A DNA stretch of 64,000 bases from Escherichia coli (GCF_024502345.1 NZ_JALDNN010000001.1); one strand, 5' to 3'. Shown: positions 1 through 21,436, counted from the first letter of the stretch. Notes: generated from the sequence alone by a model not told the origin. Program-made: numbers and translations.

Positions 1-1
1 T

Positions 2-193
2 CGTCGCAACGCTGGCGTCATCCTGAACACGCTCAACCAGAAGCGTAATGAGGCGGTTGGTAAGTACGTTCAGCAAAACGGTATCAAGCGAGTGGAAGCG
101 CCTCAGGCTTCTATAGATTACCTGAAGCAGCACCCCGAGCTGTCAATCGACTTCATTAATCGCTACGGATATCTTCCATCTTTGGGGCAGTAA
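2..193 (+). CDS. 3' end of a phage structural/ejection-type gene, truncated by the window edge
   Basis: Frame 2 is open from the window edge to a TAA at 191-193; the stop abuts the next gene's ATG (TAAATG), suggesting translational coupling. No family assignment possible from 63 aa. Confidence 0.35.
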   Translation, partial: RRNAGVILNTLNQKRNEAVGKYVQQNGIKRVEAPQASIDYLKQHPELSIDFINRYGYLPSLGQ

Positions 194-649
194 ATGGCTA
201 ATTACCGTGATTTGTTAGAGCAGGCTGGCGCACGTTACGGTGTGCCAGAAGGGTTGATGACTGCACTGGGTGCCAAGGAGTCTTCTTACAACCCTGCCGC
301 AGTAAGCTCCGCCGGGGCTGTAGGATTGACTCAGGTCATGCCTGGGACATGGCGTGATATGGGTTATACCGATGAGCAAATGCAAAACCCCGAATATCAA
401 GCTGACGCTGGCGCGCGCTATCTGGCAAAGATGTACCAGCAGTTTGGTAACTGGCGTGACGCTCTTCAGGCTTATCACGACGGTCCCGGCAACGTTATGA
501 AGGCAAAGCGTGGTGAATATACGCCAGGACCTGAAGGCCGCGGTTACGTTGATGATCGCTTTGCTCAATGGGCGGGTGACCCGGTGACAGACTCAACAGT
601 CGAACAGCGCGCCACCTCTGCAAAGGTACCTTTGCTGATTGTTATCTGA
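194..649 (+). CDS. Phage lytic transglycosylase (SLT-domain) protein, probably virion/ejection-associated
   Basis: 151-aa ORF with the SLT signature (GAKESSYNPAAVSSAGAVGLTQVMP, catalytic Glu-Ser context); sits in the prophage late region upstream of the mnt/tailspike module. Confidence 0.7.
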   Translation: MANYRDLLEQAGARYGVPEGLMTALGAKESSYNPAAVSSAGAVGLTQVMPGTWRDMGYTDEQMQNPEYQADAGARYLAKMYQQFGNWRDALQAYHDGPGNVMKAKRGEYTPGPEGRGYVDDRFAQWAGDPVTDSTVEQRATSAKVPLLIVI

Positions 650-1163
650 TGTTACTGCTACTGTTGCATGTTACCGTGTTTCCAAATCCTGAATTGCAGT
701 TTGTATATGTGTCAACGCGTGTTGGGTAAGGTTGAGTTATAACAGGCTGGCGCGCTTTTTGCTCGATCGCTTGCATTGTGTTTACAGCCTGATAATTCAA
801 TAAAGCCTGCTGGAATGCTTGGCTTTGTGCTATTTGTTGGGCTTGTTCTTGGCTTTGTAATTGAACATAAAGATTCTGAAGCTCAAGTCTTGCCTGTGCG
901 TCACTTATCTTGCCTTCATCGACACCTTGCCCGAGCATCTTTGCAGCAAGGACATACAGCTTAGGTGTTGGTGCTGATGCCATGCGTGAGTCGTTCTTCA
1001 CACTGGCATCAAGGCAATTAGCCATATCGCTAAGCTTTTGATAGCGTTGTTCGCAACTTGCTTGATAGTCACTTACTTTTGCGCATCCAACCAGCAGAAG
1101 CGGGATAATTAACAGTGATTTTTTCATATGGTTAACTCTCCTTAGTTTTTCACAGGATATCAT
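642..1163 (-). CDS. Prophage-encoded lipoprotein, candidate superinfection-exclusion or moron protein
   Basis: 173-aa ORF with an N-terminal signal peptide and lipobox (MKKSLLIIPLLLVG-C), followed by a Gln-rich, coiled-coil-like segment; RBS-like GGAGAG upstream; lies where sieA sits in P22 (next to mnt). Confidence 0.6.
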   Translation of the reverse strand: MISCEKLRRVNHMKKSLLIIPLLLVGCAKVSDYQASCEQRYQKLSDMANCLDASVKNDSRMASAPTPKLYVLAAKMLGQGVDEGKISDAQARLELQNLYVQLQSQEQAQQIAQSQAFQQALLNYQAVNTMQAIEQKARQPVITQPYPTRVDTYTNCNSGFGNTVTCNSSSNIR

Positions 1164-1197
1164 GAAGGCTATGCCATTTTAGCCGGAAACTAGATTT

Positions 1198-1497
1198 CTA
1201 TGTTTCCTTTTTATTATTGCTATACATGGTCTTAAGCGTTTCAAATACCATTTTCTTAACCATATCAGATTGTTGTTCTGCCATACGCTCTGCATCATCA
1301 ATGTAAACGGATGCAGAGCTTTGTTTAGCCAACGATTCTTCAATCGCTGCAATTATCTCTGAGTTCAGAGATCTGTTATTCATCTTCGCACGCTGCTTAA
1401 TTTTCGCGTGGAGTTCATGCGGAAGTCTCAAGTGAAACTGCGCCTCATCGTATTTGCTGTACATCCTTGATGCCTCACCAGTTGGGTGGAATGGCAT
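1198..1497 (-). CDS. mnt: Mnt-like ribbon-helix-helix repressor (Arc/MetJ superfamily)
   Basis: C-terminal segment [26 protein letters not shown] closely parallels P22 Mnt as I recall it, and the N-terminal RHH motif ([28 protein letters not shown]) is present. The true start may be the internal Met (MYSKYDE, ~1464). Divergent from the tailspike gene. Confidence 0.7.
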
Positions 1498-1584
1498 CGT
1501 AACCTACTGGATAAATACTCAATAGTACCATTTCGGTATGCAATCACATCATGGTTGCATCATATCATCGTCTGGAGCAATGAA

Positions 1585-1725
1585 ATGTCAGATATCACCG
1601 CAAATGTTGTGGTAAGCATGCCTTCGCAACTCTTCACTATGGCGCGTTCTTTTAAAGCGGTTGCCAATGGTAAAATTTATATCGGTAAAATTGACACTGA
1701 CCCGGTAAATCCTGAAAACCAGATT
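1585..1725 (+). pseudogene. P22-type tailspike gene, 5' fragment (head-binding domain), cut off by an IS insertion
   Basis: [47 protein letters not shown] matches the P22 gp9 N-terminus almost residue for residue; the frame then runs into IS-end sequence and stops. Confidence 0.8.
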
Positions 1726-1761
1726 GATCTTGACCCTCCATCTCCGAACAGCTTTTGTATC

Positions 1762-2643
1762 TTAAGTTAACGATGTCCGCTGCCGCCGGTATTCCCTCGG
1801 GGAGTGATATCCCAGCGCGCTGTGCGGGTGGTTTTCATTGTAATGCGTGAACGCTACTGCAAGGTTTCGCAGTGCTGTTCTCACATCCGGTTTTGGCATG
1901 AACGCGATATAGTCTTCTTTCATCGTTTTCACGAACCGTTCGGCCATGCCATTACTCTGCGGGCTGCTCACCGCTGTTGTGCAGGGCTCCAGATTCAGCT
2001 CTCTCGCGAACCTCCGCGTTTCATACGCGGTATACGCTGAACCGTTATCCGTCAGCCACTGCACCGCTGTGTCGGGCAACCTGTCGCCGAAGCGCTTTTC
2101 CACCGACCTCAGCATCACATCCTGCACGGTCGAACTGTCATAGCCTCCCGTGCTTGCTGCCCAGTCTATGGCCTCACGGTCGCAGCAGTCCAGCGCGAAC
2201 GTTACCCGCAGTTTTTCGCCGTTGTCGCAGCCGAACTCGAAGCCATCTGAACACCAGCGCATATCGCTTTCTGCCACCGCTATCTTGCCCTTATGTTCAC
2301 GCTTCGGTCGCTCTGGTTTGTGATGCAACAACAACAGGTTATGCTCGCTCATTATCCTGTAAAGCCGTTTGGCATTCACAGGTGGCTGTCCCTCTGTGCG
2401 ACGTTGCTTGCGCAGGATGCCCCACACGCGTCGATAACCATAACTCGGCATATCGCTGATAATGTTGAGGATAGCCGACAGTATTTCTGCGTCTGCTTCT
2501 TCATTACGCCGGTTACAGCGCCTGTCCTGCCAGTCGGCAGAACGGTTAATCCGCAGTGACAGTTGCGCACGCGACACGCCCATGGTCCGGCTGACCATGG
2601 CTATTCCCCGTCCTTTGGCAACAAGGGCGCGTGCGCTATCCAT
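1762..2643 (-). CDS. IS transposase OrfB (DDE integrase-like catalytic domain), IS2 InsD homologue
   Basis: 293 aa; motifs shared with IS2 InsD ([55 protein letters not shown]). Confidence 0.85.
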
Positions 2644-2996
2644 TTTCGCGACTGACCGTACTCCACGGCTTCTTTCAGGATCTCAACTTCCATCGTTTTC
2701 TTGCCCAGAAGGCGCTGAAGCTCCCGGACCTGCTTCAGAGCAGCAGTAAGCTCAGAAGCAGGAACGACTTCCTCTCCAGCCGCAACGGCGGTGAGGCTGC
2801 CTTCCTGATATTGCTTCTTCCACTTAAACAGCAGGCTGGGCTGGATACCATGCAGGCGGGCGACATGGGAGACATTCATACCCGGCTCCATCGTCTGCTG
2901 GATAATGGCGATCTTCTCCTGAGGAGTTTTACGTTTACGGACTTCTTGCCCTAACAGGATCCCGGTCATCTCAAAATTGGCGTTAGTGTTAGACAT
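2601..2996 (-). CDS. IS transposase OrfA (HTH DNA-binding), IS2 InsC homologue
   Basis: 131 aa; [61 protein letters not shown] closely parallels IS2 InsC; overlaps OrfB in the -1 frame. Confidence 0.85.
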
Positions 2997-3060
2997 ATAT
3001 TCAAGCCTATCTCTTATCTGGAGATACAGCTACTGTCCGGTGTTTCAGGGGGCTACATCA

Positions 3061-5026
3061 TCCTGAAAACCAGATTCAGGTTTATGTGGAGAATGAGGAT
3101 GGTTCTCACGTTCCTGTTTCGCAGCCAATCATCATTAACGCCGCTGGTTATCCTGTATATAACGGACAGATTGCCAAGTTCGTAACTGTGCAAGGCCACT
3201 CTATGGCTGTTTATGATGCATATGGTGCGCAGCAGTTTTATTTCCCTAATGTGCTGAAATACGACCCTGATCAGTTAAGGAAGGAAATTACATCCACAGG
3301 GAAAGGAAAAGGTGCGGATATGATCCCCCTTCAGCAGGGTGGAACAGTTCAAAGTGCTATATATTATGTTACGCCATCATCGGCAGGAATAACTGGTGAT
3401 GGGACAGATGAAGGAGAAAAATTAATCTATTTGCTAAATAGATATGATGGGTATGTTATCGACCTGTCTGGAATGACAATTAAAACAAGCGAGATGATTA
3501 GTGTTGTTTTCAACAAAAAAACAACAATAAGAAATGGAACTATTATCTATACTGGAGCAGTAAGTCCATTTGTTTTAAAAATAACGTGCTCATCCGTTCT
3601 TTCCATAGAGGATATTGCCATTGACGGCAAGAACAATGCTGCAAAGCTACTCTATGCGCTTTCATCCGATAACAACGCAAAAATATCTATTTCAGGCTAT
3701 TCTGGAAGAAACGCTAGGGAAGCAATTGACACAGGATTATCAACTGCTGCATATATTACGGCAGGCTCATTGTTTAGATGGAAAGAGATTAGGCTGTCAG
3801 ATTCCTCAGCTTATGATATTTCAAGCTCAGGTGGTTCTAATGTTGGTCGCGGGTTTATGGTTCAAAACTTTGAATATTGCTATGTTAGGAATATTTCAGT
3901 ATTCCGAGTTGGACCATATCAGGATGCGGATGGGATATATGCATCATCCCCTAACTATTTATCAGCAGTATTTGATATTAGTGATTCGTATTTTGAAGAC
4001 TGCCAGAAGAGATCAGTCAAATCACAGATAATGAACTCTCGGGTGAGCAATATTGTAGAGCGGCGCACACAGGCCTTTGCTGTTGCTGCTGGGCAGTCAG
4101 CAGTAGACTTGCAGGCAGGAGGTTCTCTAGACGGACTTAGTTGCTTCTATGCTGACGGAGCAGCCCCACAGTCAATCGTTTCAGGTGGTCTTGTCAGTGG
4201 AGCACCGACATTTCGAGGTATTTCTTTGCGAAATATTGACGTCAACTGCGAAGATCCGTCAGATATTATCTCTCGTCTGGTATCATTTTATAATAACTCG
4301 CCGAATACATATGATGGTTACATTGCTGAAAATATAAAATGTAATGCCATAATAGAGAATGTTGGATTTCTGTATAGCAATACAGGAAACACAAATTTTA
4401 ATGTATATCTCTTCAAAGAGGTTATCTTCAGAAACATTCAGTCGTCAGGAATGGCAGGAACGGTGCCAACTGCTGTAATTCAAATAAGCAGAGGTTCCTC
4501 TGCGTATGTGAAGGCTATAGTACGGGTGCAAAACCTCAATCTTGGCGATGGAAATATCGCACCATTGTATTATCTTGACCCATTGCCAGGGGTTACAACT
4601 TTTCTTGATGTTTTATTTCGTCAAGTAAGTAATTGCAGAGGGTTTGATACGCTAACTAACGTAAATTCCGATACATCTCAACGCATCTATGCAGTAACTG
4701 CAGACGTAGCTGAAAATGAATCTACAACACTTTTAATACCAATAAAGACAACAAATGGAAAAACGGCAGTAAAAATATCTGTAATGTATAACTCAAACAG
4801 GGATGAGCATGCAGCAAAGCTATTCACAGAAGGATACTGGTTCTTCGGGTTATCATTGCCATATTATATAGAATCAGTCGCTGGAGTAAAAACACAAACA
4901 AACGTTGGATCTATCGTGGTCACAGTTGCTGAAAACAATTTAGTTGTAAAAAAAATCGCTGGAACCACCGCTGCAAGCGGGCGGATGACAGTGATTATTG
5001 AGCATATATCATGCGTGAATATGTAG
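3061..5026 (+). pseudogene. P22-type tailspike gene, 3' portion (rest of head-binding domain plus a divergent beta-helix receptor-binding domain)
   Basis: Resumes …(PENQI)[50 protein letters not shown]… matching P22 gp9 residues ~45-110, then diverges; the six-frame ORF (3086..5026) starts at an internal Met. AT-rich relative to the flanks. Confidence 0.75.
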
Positions 5027-5160
5027 GTTAATCTGATAAATTGGGAATGGATTGGTTGCAGAATGGCGCCCTCTGTGAGACATCTGCTGCATTAGGAGTG
5101 ATAACATACATCATCAACGATGCGATGTGAGTTTGATTATTGCACGGTTTATAGGTGGCG

Positions 5161-6318
5161 CTATGCCACCCTCTCATCAATCCAGTCCGCCCACCACTGC
5201 ATCATTTCTCTGCGCTTATCGAGATACTGAGCATGGTTGTAAATCCCACGCACAGATCCGCCGTTGGCATGTGCCAGTTGCACTTCAATAGCGTCAGCAG
5301 GCCATTCGTGCTCGTTCATAATCGTGCTGAATTCATGTCTGAATCCGTGACCGCTATCCAGACCCTCATAGCCGATTTGTTTGATCACAAGTAGCACCGC
5401 GTTCTCGCAGATTGGCTTCTTCTTATCGTTGCGCCCGGCAAAAACAAATTCTGATACTGGTTTGGTGATGGAGCTTAACGTAGTGAGAAGTTCAACCACC
5501 TGGTCTGACATCGGGACCACATGAATTTTGCGTCCTTTCATCACACTGGCGTCGATGGTGATAATCCTGTTTTCAAAATCGACGTTCTTCCATAGCATAG
5601 AACGAAGCTCTTTCGTTCTTAGGGCTGTGTAGCGTAAAACTTTGGTCGCAATGAGCGATACAATACTTCCTGAAAATGTTGCCAGTGCTTTGTTGAATGC
5701 CGGGATCTGGTCTGCAGGAAGAAACGGGAAGTTCTTCTTGCGGTATCCCTTCATGGCGTCAGCAAGGTCAGGTGCCGGGTTATATTTAGCCCTACCAGTA
5801 ACAATAGCGTAACGGAAAACCTCGCCGCATCTTCTGCGGGCTTTGTTGGCTCTCTCCATTGCGCCGCGATCTTCAAATCTGCGGATTACTTCCAGCAGTT
5901 GCATCGGCTCAATATCCTGAATTTCAAGGCCGCCGATGATGGGTAAAATGTCGTCATCAAACATTTTGGCAAGTTCAGTTGCATAGCCTACTGACCAGAC
6001 TTGCTTCTTGTGCTCGTACCACTCCTTGTAAATCGCACTAAATGAATTGTTGTTAGACGAAGCCTTTTTCGCCTTTACCGGATCGATGCCAACCGAGATG
6101 TCTTTCCTCGCAGTCCATGCCTTATCCCTTGCTTCCTGCAAAGTCATAAGCGGATATTTTCCGACGGTCAGGATTTTCTCCTTACCGTCAATCTTGTAGC
6201 GAAGCTGCCATACCTTTTTCCCGGATACAGGAACATAAAGGTACAGGCCATTACCATCGAGAAGGCGGTATGGTTTTTCTTTCGGCTTTGCTGCTTCAAT
6301 CTGCTTAACGGTGAGCAT
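5161..6318 (-). CDS. intS: Prophage integrase, tyrosine recombinase (IntS / CPS-53 type)
   Basis: Near-identical by eye to E. coli IntS as I recall it (MLTVKQIEAAKPKEKPYRLLDGNGLYLYVPVSGKKVWQLRYKIDGKEK…HGFRHEF…); next to the tRNA. An in-frame upstream ATG at 6354 would give 397 aa; the annotated start is probably the MLTVKQ Met. Confidence 0.9.
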   Translation of the reverse strand: MLTVKQIEAAKPKEKPYRLLDGNGLYLYVPVSGKKVWQLRYKIDGKEKILTVGKYPLMTLQEARDKAWTARKDISVGIDPVKAKKASSNNNSFSAIYKEWYEHKKQVWSVGYATELAKMFDDDILPIIGGLEIQDIEPMQLLEVIRRFEDRGAMERANKARRRCGEVFRYAIVTGRAKYNPAPDLADAMKGYRKKNFPFLPADQIPAFNKALATFSGSIVSLIATKVLRYTALRTKELRSMLWKNVDFENRIITIDASVMKGRKIHVVPMSDQVVELLTTLSSITKPVSEFVFAGRNDKKKPICENAVLLVIKQIGYEGLDSGHGFRHEFSTIMNEHEWPADAIEVQLAHANGGSVRGIYNHAQYLDKRREMMQWWADWIDERVA

Positions 6319-6479
6319 GGGTAAAAATCCGGTGGGTAAAATTATTTTATCCACTTTTTACCCGTCATGGAGTGCGGCTGTCAACGATCTGAAGCGAACC
6401 ATGACGAACTGTTAGTTTCCGGGAGGCTTGATATTCTGGGGATTTTACGGACTGGTACGGATGGGAGCGAACTGATAAA

Positions 6480-6554
6480 TGGTGTCCCCTGCAGGAATCG
6501 AACCTGCAATTAGCCCTTAGGAGGGGCTCGTTATATCCATTTAACTAAGAGGAC
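6480..6554 (-). tRNA. argW: tRNA-Arg (anticodon CCU); prophage attachment site
   Basis: Reverse complement reads GTCCTCTTAGTTAAATGGATATAACGAGCCCCTCCTAAGGGCTAATTGCAGGTTCGATTCCTGCAGGGGACACCA, with a CCT anticodon in the loop, T-arm GGTTCGATTCC and 3' CCA. Confidence 0.9.
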
Positions 6555-6629
6555 AATGCGGCATGAGTATACCCGCTAATGGACTGCGGGGTAAGTACGC
6601 TGCCGCTCGATTGCTTAAACCCTCGCCAT

Positions 6630-18003: not shown

Positions 18004-20655
18004 ATGGATACGTGTATGCCTGACCATTCTCTTTTCCGACTGCGGGTGCTTCCCTGCTGCATTGCGCTGGCAATGTCAGGGTGTTATGTCAATGCCTGGG
18101 TTGAAGATGAAATTCAGTTTGATTCCCGTTTTCTGGAGTTAAAAGGCGACACAAAAATCGATCTGAAGCGATTTTCCAGCCAGGGATATGTCGAACCTGG
18201 TAAATACAATTTACAGGTTCAACTAAATAAACAGCCGCTGGCGGAAGAATACGATATTTACTGGTACGCCTCTGAGAACGATGCCAGTAAAACCTATGCC
18301 TGCCTGACGCCTGAACTGGTCGCGCAGTTTGGCTTAAAAGAGGATGTGGCAAAAAACCTGCAATGGATCCACGACGGCAAATGCCTGAAACCCGGTCAAC
18401 TGGAAGGCATTGATATTAAAGCTGACCTGAGTCAGTCAGCGTTAGTCATTTCATTACCCCAGGCTTACCTTGAATATACCGACATCAACTGGGATCCACC
18501 TTCACGCTGGGATGACGGTATTTCTGGTTTAATTGCTGACTACAGTATTACCGCCCAGACACGACATGAAGAAAATGGCGGGGATGACAGCAATGAAATC
18601 AGCGGCAACGGAACAGTTGGGGTTAACCTCGGCGCATGGCGTCTGCGAGCCGACTGGCAGACTGACTACCAGCACAGCAAAAGCAATGATGACGATGTTA
18701 TCAACGGTGATGACACGCAAAAAAACTGGGAGTGGAGCCGCTACTACGCCTGGCGGGCCTTACCGTCGCTAAAAGCCAAACTTGGCCTTGGCGAAGACTA
18801 CCTTAATTCTGATATTTTCGACGGCTTTAACTACGTGGGTGGCAGTATCAGCACCGACGATCAAATGTTGCCGCCGAATCTGCGCGGCTATGCGCCGGAT
18901 ATCTCCGGCGTGGCGCACACCACCGCGAAAGTGACCGTCAGCCAGATGGGCCGCGTGATTTACGAAACGCAGGTTCCGGCGGGGCCGTTCCGCATCCAGG
19001 ATCTTGGCGATTCTGTCTCCGGTACACTGCACATCCGCATTGAAGAACAGAACGGCCAGGTGCAGGAATATGACATCAACACCGCCTCGATGCCGTTCCT
19101 GACCCGCCCCGGCCAGGTGCGCTATAAGCTGATGATGGGCCGCCCGCAGGAGTGGGGGCATCATGTTGAGGGCGGTTTCTTCTCCGGCGGCGAAGCTTCA
19201 TGGGGGATTGCCAACGGCTGGTCGCTGTACGGCGGGGCGCTGGCAGATGAACACTATCAGTCGGCGGCGCTTGGCGTCGGTCGCGACCTGTCTGTCTTTG
19301 GCGCAGTCGCCTTTGATATCACCCACTCGCATACCCGCCTGGATAAAGAGACCGCCTACGGTAAAGGTTCACTGGACGGTAACTCGTTTCGCGTGAGCTA
19401 TTCCAAAGACTTCGATGAACTGAACAGCCGCGTCACTTTTGCCGGATACCGCTTCTCGGAAGAGAACTTCATGACCATGAGCGAGTATCTCGATGCCAGC
19501 GACAGCGAAATGGTGCGCACCGGCAACGACAAAGAGATGTACACCGCCACCTATAACCAGAACTTCAGGGATGCCGGTGTGTCTGTTTATCTCAACTACA
19601 CCCGCCATACCTACTGGGATCGCGACGAACAGACCAACTACAACGTCATGCTCTCGCACTACTTCAACCTGGGCAGTATCCGCAATATGAGCATTTCCAT
19701 GACCGGATACCGCTACGAGTATGATAACCAGGCCGATAAAGGTGTGTACATATCGCTCAGTATGCCGTGGGGTGACAGCAGCACCATCAGCTATAACGGC
19801 AACTACGGCAGCGGTTCGGACAGCAGCCAGGTGGGGTATTTCAGCCGTGTCGATGACGCAACTCACTACCAGCTGAACGTGGGGACCAGTGACAAACACT
19901 CCAGCGTTGACGGCTATTACAGCCACGATGGCTCGCTGGCGCAGGTGGACCTCAGCGCCAACTACCATGAAGGACAGTACACCTCGGCAGGTATTTCCTT
20001 ACAGGGCGGCGCGACGCTGACCGCGCAGGGTGGCGCGCTCCACCGTACCCAGAATATGGGCGGTACGCGCCTGCTGATTGATGCCGATGGCGTGGCTGGT
20101 GTTCCGGTGGAAGGAAATGGCGCGGCGGTTTACACCAATATGTTCGGTAAGACCGTGGTGGCAGACGTCAACAACTACTACCGCAATCAGGCCTATATCG
20201 ACCTTAACAACCTGCCGGAAAACGCCGAAGCCACCCAGTCCGTGGTGCAGGCGACGCTTACCGAAGGAGCCATTGGCTACCGTAAGTTTTCGGTTATCAG
20301 CGGGCAAAAAGCGATGGCGGTATTGCGCCTGCAAGATGGCAGTCATCCGCCGTTTGGCGCGGAAGTGAAAAATGACAACGCGCAGAACGTCGGTCTGGTT
20401 GATGATGACGGCAACGTCTACCTCGCGGGTGTCAAACCTGGCGAGCATATGATCGTTTCATGGGGCGGTGTGGCCCACTGTGATATTCATCTGCCGGACC
20501 CACTGCCAGCCGATCTGTTCAATGGCCTGTTACTACCATGTCAACAAACAGGGGCGATATCTCCTTCGATGCCTCATCAAATTAAGCCGGTGATCCAGGA
20601 GCAGACCCAGCAGGTGATGCCAACGGAAGCGCCGGTATCGGTATCCGCCAATTAA
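18004..20655 (+). CDS. yfcU: Fimbrial usher outer-membrane protein, apparently intact
   Basis: Uninterrupted 883-aa ORF of usher size and composition (Gly/Tyr/Asn-rich beta-barrel). Confidence 0.85.
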   Translation: MDTCMPDHSLFRLRVLPCCIALAMSGCYVNAWVEDEIQFDSRFLELKGDTKIDLKRFSSQGYVEPGKYNLQVQLNKQPLAEEYDIYWYASENDASKTYACLTPELVAQFGLKEDVAKNLQWIHDGKCLKPGQLEGIDIKADLSQSALVISLPQAYLEYTDINWDPPSRWDDGISGLIADYSITAQTRHEENGGDDSNEISGNGTVGVNLGAWRLRADWQTDYQHSKSNDDDVINGDDTQKNWEWSRYYAWRALPSLKAKLGLGEDYLNSDIFDGFNYVGGSISTDDQMLPPNLRGYAPDISGVAHTTAKVTVSQMGRVIYETQVPAGPFRIQDLGDSVSGTLHIRIEEQNGQVQEYDINTASMPFLTRPGQVRYKLMMGRPQEWGHHVEGGFFSGGEASWGIANGWSLYGGALADEHYQSAALGVGRDLSVFGAVAFDITHSHTRLDKETAYGKGSLDGNSFRVSYSKDFDELNSRVTFAGYRFSEENFMTMSEYLDASDSEMVRTGNDKEMYTATYNQNFRDAGVSVYLNYTRHTYWDRDEQTNYNVMLSHYFNLGSIRNMSISMTGYRYEYDNQADKGVYISLSMPWGDSSTISYNGNYGSGSDSSQVGYFSRVDDATHYQLNVGTSDKHSSVDGYYSHDGSLAQVDLSANYHEGQYTSAGISLQGGATLTAQGGALHRTQNMGGTRLLIDADGVAGVPVEGNGAAVYTNMFGKTVVADVNNYYRNQAYIDLNNLPENAEATQSVVQATLTEGAIGYRKFSVISGQKAMAVLRLQDGSHPPFGAEVKNDNAQNVGLVDDDGNVYLAGVKPGEHMIVSWGGVAHCDIHLPDPLPADLFNGLLLPCQQTGAISPSMPHQIKPVIQEQTQQVMPTEAPVSVSAN

Positions 20656-20677
20656 CAACGTGATTAAGGAATGATCC

Positions 20678-21436
20678 ATGACGAATCTATTTTGCTCTGC
20701 CAGAACGGCCGCAACGACGCTGGCGTTACTGATAACTGCCGCCAGCCTGTCAGCACAGGCCTCTGTCACGCCGGACCGTACACGCCTGATTTTTAACGAA
20801 AGTGATAAATCAATCAGCGTCACGCTGCGCAATAACGACCCGAAAATGCCGTATCTGGCACAAAGCTGGATGGAAGATGAACAGGGTAACAAGATTAGCT
20901 CGCCACTGACGGTACTGCCGCCGGTGCAGCGCATCGATTCCATGATGAACGGTCAGGTGAAGGTACAGGGCATGCCGGATATCAACAAGCTGCCTGCCGA
21001 CCGCGAGAGCGTGTTCTATTTCAACGTGCGTGAGATCCCGCCGAAATCGAACAAACCCAACACGTTACAGATTGCGCTGCAAACGCGCATCAAGCTGTTC
21101 TGGCGACCAAAGGCGCTGGAAAACGTCAGCATGAAAAATCCGTGGCAGCATAAGGTGACCTTAACCCGCAGCGGCCAGGAGTTTACAGTCAATAACCCGA
21201 CGCCGTACTTCGTGGTTATCAGTAACGCCAGTGCGCAGAAAAATGGTAATCCGGCAGCGGGATTTTCCCCGCTGGTGATATCGCCAAAAACCTCCGTACC
21301 GTTAAAGGTCAAAATGGATAGCGTCCCGGTGCTGACCTACGTCAACGACTATGGCGCGCGGATGCCGCTGTTCTTCACCTGTACGGGAAACACCTGCCAG
21401 GTGGATGAAAAGCAAAACAGCCAGGGCCAGGGATAG
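20678..21436 (+). CDS. yfcS: Periplasmic fimbrial chaperone (PapD-like)
   Basis: 252 aa with signal peptide and chaperone motifs (RLIFNESDKSISVTLRN, FYFNVREIPP). Confidence 0.85.
   Translation: MTNLFCSARTAATTLALLITAASLSAQASVTPDRTRLIFNESDKSISVTLRNNDPKMPYLAQSWMEDEQGNKISSPLTVLPPVQRIDSMMNGQVKVQGMPDINKLPADRESVFYFNVREIPPKSNKPNTLQIALQTRIKLFWRPKALENVSMKNPWQHKVTLTRSGQEFTVNNPTPYFVVISNASAQKNGNPAAGFSPLVISPKTSVPLKVKMDSVPVLTYVNDYGARMPLFFTCTGNTCQVDEKQNSQGQG

Follow-up and report, generated by a model that had tools for sequence, protein, structure and literature searches.

The P22-like element beside argW in an Escherichia coli genome is probably the integrase-proximal end of a cryptic prophage remnant

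The 64,000-nucleotide stretch of Escherichia coli DNA that we analyzed (GCF_024502345.1, NZ_JALDNN010000001.1; hereafter the window) opens with genes resembling those of phage P22 that lead up to the tRNA gene argW. A preliminary description regarded them as one end of a P22-like prophage with an unusual organization. Does the locus depart from that of related prophages, and does it belong to a complete prophage? As set out below, positions 1–6554 very probably belong to a cryptic, non-viable P22-like (Lederbergvirus) remnant, of which they form the integrase-proximal end and which is integrated in argW in the manner of Sf6, HK620 and CPS-53. The view of the region as a P22-like, integrase-proximal element, with mnt alone in its immunity region (immI) and no conversion gene, was sustained, but the view that this arrangement is unusual was not. 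Nucleotide identity to Lederbergvirus phages such as IME10, Sf6 and N7 is 94–99.8%.

The argW gene, which encodes tRNA-Arg(CCU), is located at 6480–6554 on the minus strand (ARAGORN; anticodon CCT). Next to it and in the same orientation, as the preliminary description had it, is an IntS-type integrase gene, whose full open reading frame spans 5161–6354 (minus strand) and whose likely product, a P4-type tyrosine integrase (phrog_1) of 385 residues, corresponds to 5161–6318. The protein is identical to IntS of K-12 at 381 of 384 residues (99%), and the 5′ end of its gene is separated from the 3′ end of the tRNA gene by 161 bp. When aligned to the window, the annotated attP cores of HK620 and Sf6 mapped at about 6479–6494, which places an att core at the 3′ end of argW (6480–6494; CTGCAGGGGACACCA on the minus strand), and matches to phage sequence end at this core, at 6494. 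Two features of the KplE1-type argW module, an IntS orthologue beside argW and an att core of 15–16 bp, are present. The window contains this single copy of the core and no second one; if the element is a remnant, another copy, CTGCAGGGGACAC(C/T)A, would be expected to the left of position 1.

On its other side intS faces the tailspike gene, with which it is convergent. The tailspike stop codon ends at 5026, leaving a spacer of 134 bp (5027–5160), in agreement with the earlier estimate that the tailspike gene ends about 135 bp from the integrase gene with no gtrABC-like genes in between. No gene was called in the spacer, no inverted repeat was found there and no terminator was detected in a consensus scan, and the predicted RNA fold was no better than that of shuffled sequence (z = −0.23). 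The argW prophage of strain HCP6S3_I2 has the same spacer (98.5% identity) and the same junction with intS, whereas strain ZY22049 shares only 5098–5160. We regard the spacer as an empty conversion-gene (moron) slot, a variable site that can be occupied in different elements by gtr genes, an acyltransferase gene, an O-antigen-polymerase-like gene or nothing. The preliminary description had counted the discovery of gtr-like genes elsewhere in the element as evidence against its account; none was found in the element as it exists in the sibling contigs described below, where no called gene matched a GtrA, glycosyltransferase or acyltransferase Pfam family. An empty slot is often seen in argW Lederbergviruses, a reason for caution in inferring serotype conversion from the presence of a prophage.

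The earlier comparison had been with P22 and CPS-53, both said to carry gtr genes at the end where tailspike and integrase meet. In CPS-53 the gtr genes do follow intS. For the P22 prophage the comparison is misplaced in its topology. In P22, attP is located between gtrA and int, so that in the prophage the tailspike and gtr genes come to lie at the end opposite int. Elements of the Sf6/HK620/CPS-53 type have their attP upstream of int, and the tailspike end stays beside int. Because of this position of attP, integration yields the order argW, int, an optional conversion gene and then the tailspike gene on the opposite strand. The element resembles Sf6, HK620, P22 and Kapi1 in its head-binding tailspike module and in its ejection genes of the gp20/gp16 type, and it resembles Sf6, HK620 and Kapi1 in having an IntS-type integrase and an attP on the upstream side of int. 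It differs from Sf6, which has oac between tailspike and int, and from HK620, which has an O-antigen-polymerase-like gene there (for this reason HK620 was rejected as an earlier example of an empty slot). It also differs from P22, which has gtrCBA, an attP downstream of int, a different integrase, and arc and ant in addition to mnt. Kapi1, a viable phage, has a similar, near-empty slot, a gap of 171 bp that holds only a 34-codon open reading frame (bioRxiv 10.1101/2021.04.09.439263); unlike the element studied here, it has a full mnt-arc-ant region.

At its left edge the window begins within a gene for a P22 gp20-like DNA-ejection protein, of which only the 3′ end is present (2–193, plus strand, 63 codons; phrog_2534, profile positions 387–435 of 435) and which is 99.8% identical in nucleotide sequence to gene 20 of IME10 and 99.7% identical to that of the prophage of strain JX2. 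It is followed by a gene for an ejection protein with a lytic-transglycosylase (SLT) domain, the equivalent of gene 16 (194–649, plus strand; phrog_21143, positions 1–145 of 576). As in P22-like phages, the two genes lie immediately upstream of the immI/tailspike region, but the second is truncated: 151 residues are left of the 797 encoded by the full-length open reading frames of IME10 and JX2. From overlapping BLAST segments and direct comparison with the JX2 sequence (locus L007), which the window matches at 3001–3629 and again from 5649 onward, we mapped a deletion of about 2,019 bp, which took away part of the ejection gene together with spacer sequence downstream of it. The junction lies at a short imperfect repeat at 616–629. 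The remaining stump had no match in PADLOC.

How much of the prophage lies beyond position 1 can be judged from sibling contigs of commensal E. coli. Eight independent contigs share the 151-residue stump and, apart from an insertion sequence considered below, show 99.88–100% identity to the window over the shared stretches; for one of them (L014) there were no mismatches in 1,725 nucleotides and one in 8,941. Three contigs (L014, L015 and L016) reach far enough to the left to show the whole order: cscB, attR, torI, early genes, a KilA-N gene, a lambda/HK97-type immunity region (cI, cro, cII), a fusion gene and then the genes of the window. Three others (L018, L019 and L021) have the gene order of L014 as far left as they go. 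The fusion gene encodes 381 residues and joins the start of an O-like gene to gene 20, with the junction at gp20 residue 97. In L014 the torI product matches that of K-12 at 100% identity, and attR (4877–4891 of that contig), whose core has one mismatch, sets the length of the element at 10,074 bp. Replication, lysis and head genes are all missing from it; the P22-type portal, scaffold, coat and head-completion genes, which would fall outside the window in our genome, are deleted in the near-identical siblings. The expectation that the remainder of the prophage would be found upstream of position 1 is therefore borne out only in part: the gp20-like gene does continue leftward, but the siblings hold only about 5 kb more phage DNA there.

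The second lesion in the window is in the tailspike gene, which the preliminary description had treated as a single intact gene. It is split at codon 47 by an IS3-family (IS2-group) insertion sequence of 1,336 bp (1725–3060, minus strand), which has ends of TGAT...ATCA and two overlapping genes, orfA (2601–2996) and orfB (1762–2643). The 5′ fragment of the tailspike gene (1585–1724, plus strand; 140 nucleotides) comprises codons 1–46 and two bases of codon 47, part of the head-binding domain, and its reading frame now runs into the insertion and stops at 1770. The 3′ part (3076–5026, plus strand), otherwise open, encodes the rest of the head-binding domain and the receptor-binding domain. On both sides the insertion is flanked by a direct repeat of 15 bp, TCCTGAAAACCAGAT, at 1710–1724 and 3061–3075, and removal in silico of the insertion and one copy of the repeat restored an open reading frame of 696 codons. 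The transposase matched the NCBIfam IS3-family model NF033516 (199 bits; cut-off, 160); the IS2 TnpA and TnpB models were the best subfamily matches, with scores below their own cut-offs. RefSeq labels identical copies as IS3-family transposases with a programmed frameshift. IS3-family elements normally generate target-site duplications of 3–5 bp, and the 15 bp seen here depart from that expectation. Wrongly set boundaries or a two-step event were considered as the source of the long duplication and rejected, as copies in E. coli chromosomes and plasmids that are 100% identical end at exactly the bases corresponding to 1725 and 3060, and at three other independent sites the same element is flanked by duplications of 15–16 bp.

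Could the insertion, or the deletions, be mis-joins in the source assembly? Copies of insertion sequences are a frequent cause of mis-assembly, and the tailspike insertion was found in this genome alone among those examined. Exact look-ups with the two products of the split gene, an N-terminal fragment of 61 residues and a C-terminal one of 646, yielded no match, and a 42-nucleotide sequence spanning the junction of insertion and tailspike gene had no exact match in a collection of species-representative genomes. Nonetheless, a perfect duplication of uninterrupted tailspike sequence is the signature of a real transposition, it has the length seen around the other copies, and the deletion in the SLT gene recurs in all eight independent sibling assemblies. 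We consider an artefact of assembly extremely improbable.

To the left of the tailspike gene are two genes on the minus strand. The first (642–1127) encodes a predicted lipoprotein of 161 residues (phrog_6067, a family of unknown function; E = 2e-110), whose N-terminus, MKKSLLIIPLLLVGC, reads by eye as a lipoprotein signal. It occupies the place of sieA/orf59a in P22. The second (1198–1464) encodes an Mnt-like ribbon-helix-helix repressor of 88 residues, or 99 if translation starts at 1497 (phrog_795 and Arc-like families); the identical protein of the sibling contigs matched the Pfam families Repressor_Mnt and Arc. The preliminary description was right that mnt is directly divergent from the tailspike gene with neither arc nor ant. 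Only 87–120 bp, depending on the mnt start, separate it from the tailspike start codon at 1585, and no open reading frame was found there. Within this divergent region an inverted repeat, ATGCAATCA-N5-TGGTTGCAT (1538–1560), is a candidate operator.

Is this arrangement, with an empty slot and mnt alone, exceptional? Five complete E. coli genomes (JX2, ZY22049, B7A, H3 and T43) have annotations in the order ejection gene, lipoprotein gene, mnt, tailspike, intS, argW, with gaps of 76–398 bp between tailspike and intS, without arc, ant or a conversion gene, and with yfdC following argW; the lipoprotein gene is in the same place in all five. JX2 and ZY22049 are 97.6–98.8% identical to the window in nucleotide sequence over the lipoprotein gene, mnt and the head-binding module. 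Unlike the element studied here, the five prophages have full-length equivalents of gene 16 (665–797 codons) and tailspike genes free of the insertion, which encode proteins of 631–794 residues with other receptor-binding domains. Among the best 25 E. coli matches to a 9-kb query, a sample ranked by similarity rather than a census, about seven leave no room for a conversion gene. Isolated phages point the same way: IME10 matches the stretch from mnt to the start of the tailspike gene at 96%, and phage Gally has an annotated Mnt without arc or ant. Counting Kapi1 separately, at least six E. coli genomes besides this one share the layout, and as judged from these sequences, the empty slot and the Mnt-only immI are recurrent variants among related E. 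coli prophages.

These comparisons bear on whether the window could contain one end of a full-length, possibly functional P22-like prophage that lacks gtr, arc and ant and whose attL end is unusually organized, perhaps representing a distinct sub-lineage with another strategy for superinfection or for the O antigen. All the genes listed in the preliminary description are indeed present in the order given, and the tailspike reading frame, the insertion aside, is open. The receptor-binding part of the tailspike is, moreover, shared with a prophage that retains head and lysis genes, the apparently near-complete argW prophage of HCP6S3_I2: the reconstructed protein and the HCP6S3_I2 tailspike agree at 693 of 697 positions (including the stop), the four residue differences all falling within the first 59 and the receptor-binding part being identical. 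That prophage has Q and a complete mnt-arc-ant immI, and lacks the insertion (the annotation marks its SLT ejection gene as a pseudogene). Against a full-length prophage are the disrupted tailspike gene, the reduction of the gene 16 equivalent to 151 codons, the near-identical contigs that keep only about 10 kb in total, and the recurrence of a layout held to be unusual. It is highly improbable and already largely refuted by the insertion and the truncation. The preliminary description had recognized that its genes might instead be isolated remnants, and the lesions in the window and the 10-kb gutted element of the siblings go most of the way toward that view.

A close parallel for such a remnant is CPS-53 (KplE1) of K-12. 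CPS-53 likewise is a gutted remnant of about 10 kb bounded by att repeats, has lost its replication, lysis and head genes, uses the 3′ end of argW, and has an IntS that is 99% identical and an attP between int and the gene for the recombination directionality factor; as judged from the sibling contig, TorI is identical and the attR end is 94% identical in nucleotide sequence. Its order is argW, intS, gtr genes ... torI, attR. CPS-53 differs in having gtrA, gtrB and gtrS (yfdGHI) directly after intS together with tail-fibre-assembly remnants, and in having neither a tailspike gene nor mnt; in the element described here the slot is empty, and there are a P22-type tailspike, mnt, the lipoprotein gene and, in the sibling, the lambda/HK97-type immunity region.

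The decay of the element involved at least three steps. The first would be a large deletion with loss of the replication, late-control, lysis and head genes, which left the beginning of the O-like replication gene joined to gene 20 at codon 97 of the latter. The window holds 193 nucleotides of the end of gene 20, and both this deletion and attR are known from the siblings, from which the loss is extrapolated to this genome. The second is the deletion of about 2 kb that shortened the SLT ejection protein, and the third and most recent is the insertion at codon 47 of the tailspike gene; both are visible in the window. Because near-identical relatives free of the insertion are available for comparison, the locus illustrates clearly how a prophage decays step by step. 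By analogy with KplE1/CPS-53, the element might still be excised by IntS acting with TorI, whose gene is at the opposite end, and by analogy with P22 its repressor genes could still confer immunity. The importance of this ordinary cryptic remnant beyond its correct annotation is small. It is best annotated as the remnant of a cryptic P22-like prophage at argW, analogous in position to CPS-53, with the tailspike gene given as a pseudogene disrupted by an insertion sequence and the ejection gene as truncated, rather than an unusual or intact prophage.

Might some of what is left have been kept because it serves the host? A cluster of lipoprotein, mnt and tailspike genes (or cI) could be a domesticated module that might benefit the host by supplying a depolymerase for the O antigen, a lipoprotein that acts in exclusion, or immunity to phages. 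At least 24 contigs, some from isolates and some from metagenomes, carry the same remnant with the tailspike gene uninterrupted. The empty slot would then matter, and the O antigen could be changed by non-canonical genes, as reported for Kapi1, whose lysogeny alters the lipopolysaccharide without recognizable conversion genes (bioRxiv 10.1101/2021.04.09.439263). But the tailspike gene is knocked out here, which argues against strong selection; the contigs, being nearly identical, may represent one recent clone and so say little about retention; and the lipoprotein and Mnt have no match to a defence family (none in PADLOC for either, and none in NCBIfam for the lipoprotein). A domesticated module is very unlikely, and it is just as doubtful that the remnant is retained for any host benefit, be it exclusion or immunity conferred by the lipoprotein or by Mnt/cI, an alteration of the O antigen like that of Kapi1, or a new glycan specificity of the tailspike.

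Finally, we note that the reconstructed tailspike combines a common N-terminus with a rare remainder. The Pfam Head_binding domain (PF09008) covers residues 1–113 (E = 5e-67), and sequence matches in the PDB, limited to residues 1–118, are to the N-termini of Sf6, P22 and other tailspikes. When residues 116–696 were compared with all phage records by tblastn, only the first 60 residues of the query matched, and neither the 50,697 phage records nor the search of PDB sequences yielded a counterpart of the receptor-binding domain. A match to phrog_8280 ("colanic acid degradation") covers residues 1–374 only and was dropped as a guide to specificity; we claim none. The domain, which could define a new glycan specificity, is present in one of 5,426 complete E. 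coli genomes.

The prophage end at argW is that of a P22-like remnant with the integration module of CPS-53 (KplE1), the cryptic prophage of K-12. The sole tRNA gene found by ARAGORN, encoding tRNA-Arg (anticodon CCT), is argW (6480-6554, minus strand). It is adjoined by a co-oriented integrase ORF (5161-6354, minus strand), whose probable product (5161-6318, 385 aa) is identical at 381 of 384 positions to IntS of CPS-53, so that the preliminary description was correct in placing an IntS-type integrase at this tRNA gene. To the right of argW follow yfdC, mlaA, yfdF, and fadL, the argW neighbourhood of E. coli. In a megablast search of 50,697 phage records the best matches were to members of Lederbergvirus, the P22-like phages (IME10, N7, Sf6, HZ41, and Kapi1), and every phage match stopped at 6494, within the 3' end of argW. 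Alignment of the phage sequences to the window likewise placed the annotated attP cores of HK620 and Sf6 at the argW 3' end. An IntS-type module was used for integration at this site.

The absence of O-antigen conversion genes between tailspike and integrase had been contrasted with P22 and CPS-53. In CPS-53 the order argW, intS, yfdGHI does place gtr genes after intS, but the comparison with P22 has to be corrected. The P22 map runs 9, gtrCBA, attP, int; because attP lies between the gtr genes and int, a P22 prophage has its tailspike and gtr genes at the other end from int. In the IntS type (HK620 and Sf6), attP is upstream of int, and therefore tailspike, conversion-gene slot, and int remain a whole block beside argW, the slot being filled by oac in Sf6 and by an O-antigen-polymerase-like gene in HK620. 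In Sf6, HK620, KplE1, and Kapi1, attP is located between int and xis, which puts int and xis at opposite prophage ends (bioRxiv 10.1101/2021.04.09.439263).

In the window the slot is empty: the tailspike and integrase stops are separated by a spacer of 134 bp (5027-5160) with nothing coding within, as had been described. This layout had been considered unusual, but it is not. Five complete E. coli genomes share the order ejection gene, 161-aa hypothetical gene (minus strand), 88-aa Arc-family/Mnt gene (minus), head-binding tailspike gene (plus), intS (minus), tRNA-Arg, and yfdC, and none of the five has arc, ant, or a conversion gene. The gap between the tailspike and intS stops is 76 bp in JX2, 81 bp in B7A, 91 bp in H3, 352 bp in T43, and 398 bp in ZY22049. 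(Within the ZY22049 gap, 56 bp from the 3' end of intS are repeated [L006 9075-9130; 89% identical, equivalent to 5166-5221 of the window], and this repeat may have been left behind by recombination or by the loss of a gene from the slot.) When the 25 E. coli matches ranking highest for the first 9 kb were scored from listed features or record spans, the slot held an acyltransferase gene in about nine, a glucosyltransferase gene in six, and an O-antigen-polymerase-like gene in two, and was too small for any conversion gene in about seven. This tailspike and the 134-bp spacer (98.5% identical) recur in the prophage of E. coli HCP6S3_I2, which in addition carries genes for antiterminator, lysis, terminase, portal, and coat and the complete mnt-arc-ant set. 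Kapi1, an isolated temperate phage that integrates at argW, has a 34-aa ORF alone between tailspike and integrase, and its authors report no recognisable seroconversion gene (bioRxiv 10.1101/2021.04.09.439263).

Mnt without arc or ant, divergent from the tailspike, had likewise been read correctly (1198-1464/1497, minus strand). The same Mnt-only state occurs in two isolated phages: IME10, which matches the stretch from mnt to the tailspike start at 96%, and Gally, which has an annotated Mnt and neither arc nor ant. By analogy with K-12 KplE1 and P22, Mnt is probably the repressor of a promoter within the 87-120-bp divergent region, where a 9-nt inverted repeat (1538-1560) is a candidate operator; arc and ant being absent, this promoter would read into the tailspike.

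Two of the genes left of the slot are inactivated, those for the tailspike and the gp16 equivalent. At its left end the window has the 3'-terminal 63 codons of an ejection gene like that for P22 gp20 (2-193, plus strand), followed by an SLT-domain ORF of 151 aa (194-649, plus) and a predicted lipoprotein gene of 161 aa (642-1127, minus; phrog_6067, function unknown). The SLT ORF is a stump of a gene of 797 codons in both phage IME10 and the prophage of E. coli JX2. Sequence comparison with the JX2 locus (L007) gave a match that runs to L007 position 3629 and picks up again at 5649, the two segments overlapping by 14 nt at an imperfect repeat, CCAC(C)TCTGCA(A/T)AGG...TAC; thus, about 2,019 bp were deleted from the SLT gene region. 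P22 gene 16, which occupies this position, encodes a protein ejected with the DNA during infection. With its gene 16 equivalent cut to a stump, the phage would probably be non-infectious even if its tailspike were intact. The HCP6S3_I2 annotation gives the SLT ejection-protein gene as a pseudogene with both termini missing (L005 15491-17957), followed by about 1.3 kb without annotation, and this prophage, too, may be defective.

Alignment with the uninterrupted HCP6S3_I2 homologue revealed that the tailspike gene is broken at 1724/3076. Its first 140 nt (1585-1724, plus strand) are separated by an insertion sequence (1725-3060) from the body of the gene, a long plus-strand ORF ending at 5026. 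Identical copies at other E. coli loci align to query positions 36-1371, that is, 1725-3060 of the window, which fixes the length of the element at 1,336 bp. It encodes IS3-family, IS2-like orfA and orfB and is flanked by a perfect 15-bp target duplication, TCCTGAAAACCAGAT. Removal of the element and one repeat copy restored a 2,091-nt ORF for a protein of 696 aa, which shows only four differences from the HCP6S3_I2 tailspike, none of them beyond residue 59. As interrupted, the gene yields a 61-aa N-terminal fragment and a large fragment whose head-binding domain has lost approximately its first 50 residues. Target duplications in the IS3 family are usually 3-5 bp; those of this element are unusually long, also at three other independent insertion sites (16, 16, and 15 bp; L008, L010, and L011). 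RefSeq names it only "IS3 family transposase," without an ISfinder name, and matches to it occur on chromosomes and plasmids in 942 of 5,426 complete E. coli genomes (near full length in 162).

The left part of the element could be read in sibling contigs. An exact-sequence look-up with the 151-aa stump as a unique marker gave at least 24 contigs, of isolate and metagenome origin. Eight were fetched, and all were 99.88-100% identical to the window on either side of the insertion sequence; L014 had no mismatch in 1,725 nt and one in 8,941 nt. L014 (E. coli ccpm3962) and L017 (ccpm3961) derive from commensals of a healthy child (PMC7133007). None of the eight has the insertion in its tailspike gene, and because the target duplication is also still perfect, we infer that the insertion was the most recent event. 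The three contigs that reach far enough (L014, L015, and L016) have the order cscR-A-K-B (host), att copy (L014 4877-4891, one mismatch), torI (a 66-aa product 100% identical to TorI), a few early genes, KilA-N, lambda/HK97-type cI, cro, and cII, a 381-aa ORF, and then the window genes; L018, L019, and L021 agree for as far left as they extend. An in-frame fusion, the 381-aa ORF (L014 8855-10000) begins with about 34 residues from an O-like replication gene and continues as gp20 from residue 97; it marks the extensive deletion by which the prophage was gutted. In the siblings, a second att repeat and further phage genes lie to the left, as the preliminary description had supposed, but their element, 10,074 bp from att to att and comparable to CPS-53 at the same site (10,215 bp), contains no genes for replication, late control, lysis, or head, and none of its genes has a GtrA, glycosyltransferase, or acyltransferase Pfam match on record. 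The near-identity of the siblings makes it likely that the left part is the same in the window genome, with the insertion sequence added. From what is known of KplE1 and P22, the element could still be excised by IntS with the TorI encoded at its far end, and cI and Mnt might confer immunity. Beside cI lie short ORFs that match the Pfam family BstA_C weakly and come after a 113-aa KilA-N ORF (L014 6435-7194; L015 5797-5964; L016 6435-6602), a stretch that looks like a broken bstA-type abortive-infection gene; the PADLOC match to the KilA-N part was weak (PDC-S22, E 2.5e-5).

The one part of the element without a match is the receptor-binding domain of the tailspike (3430-5026, residues ~120-696). 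It had no tblastn match in the 50,697 phage records, a PDB sequence search matched the head-binding domain and nothing beyond it, and among the 5,426 complete E. coli genomes only HCP6S3_I2 has it (100% identical at the protein level). Rare receptor-binding domains are the norm for tailspikes, and we therefore do not count this as a finding. All other parts already have close annotated counterparts, and the case is an ordinary one, a decayed cryptic prophage of common layout. IntS at argW, the short gap, and the lone Mnt stand as first described, but the split tailspike and the SLT stump had been missed, and the reading as an unusual organisation is not supported.

Finally, we note two regions near the prophage site that are divergent alleles, since flanking core genes are 96-97% identical: in the yfdF to fadL-distal region (9675-11087) the window is only 87% identical to HCP6S3_I2, and in the yfcV-yfcU fimbrial region (17203-21414) only 84%. 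The yfdF ORF of the window (8823-10043) encodes 406 aa, as compared with the 1,059-nt (352-aa) gene of K-12 and other E. coli.
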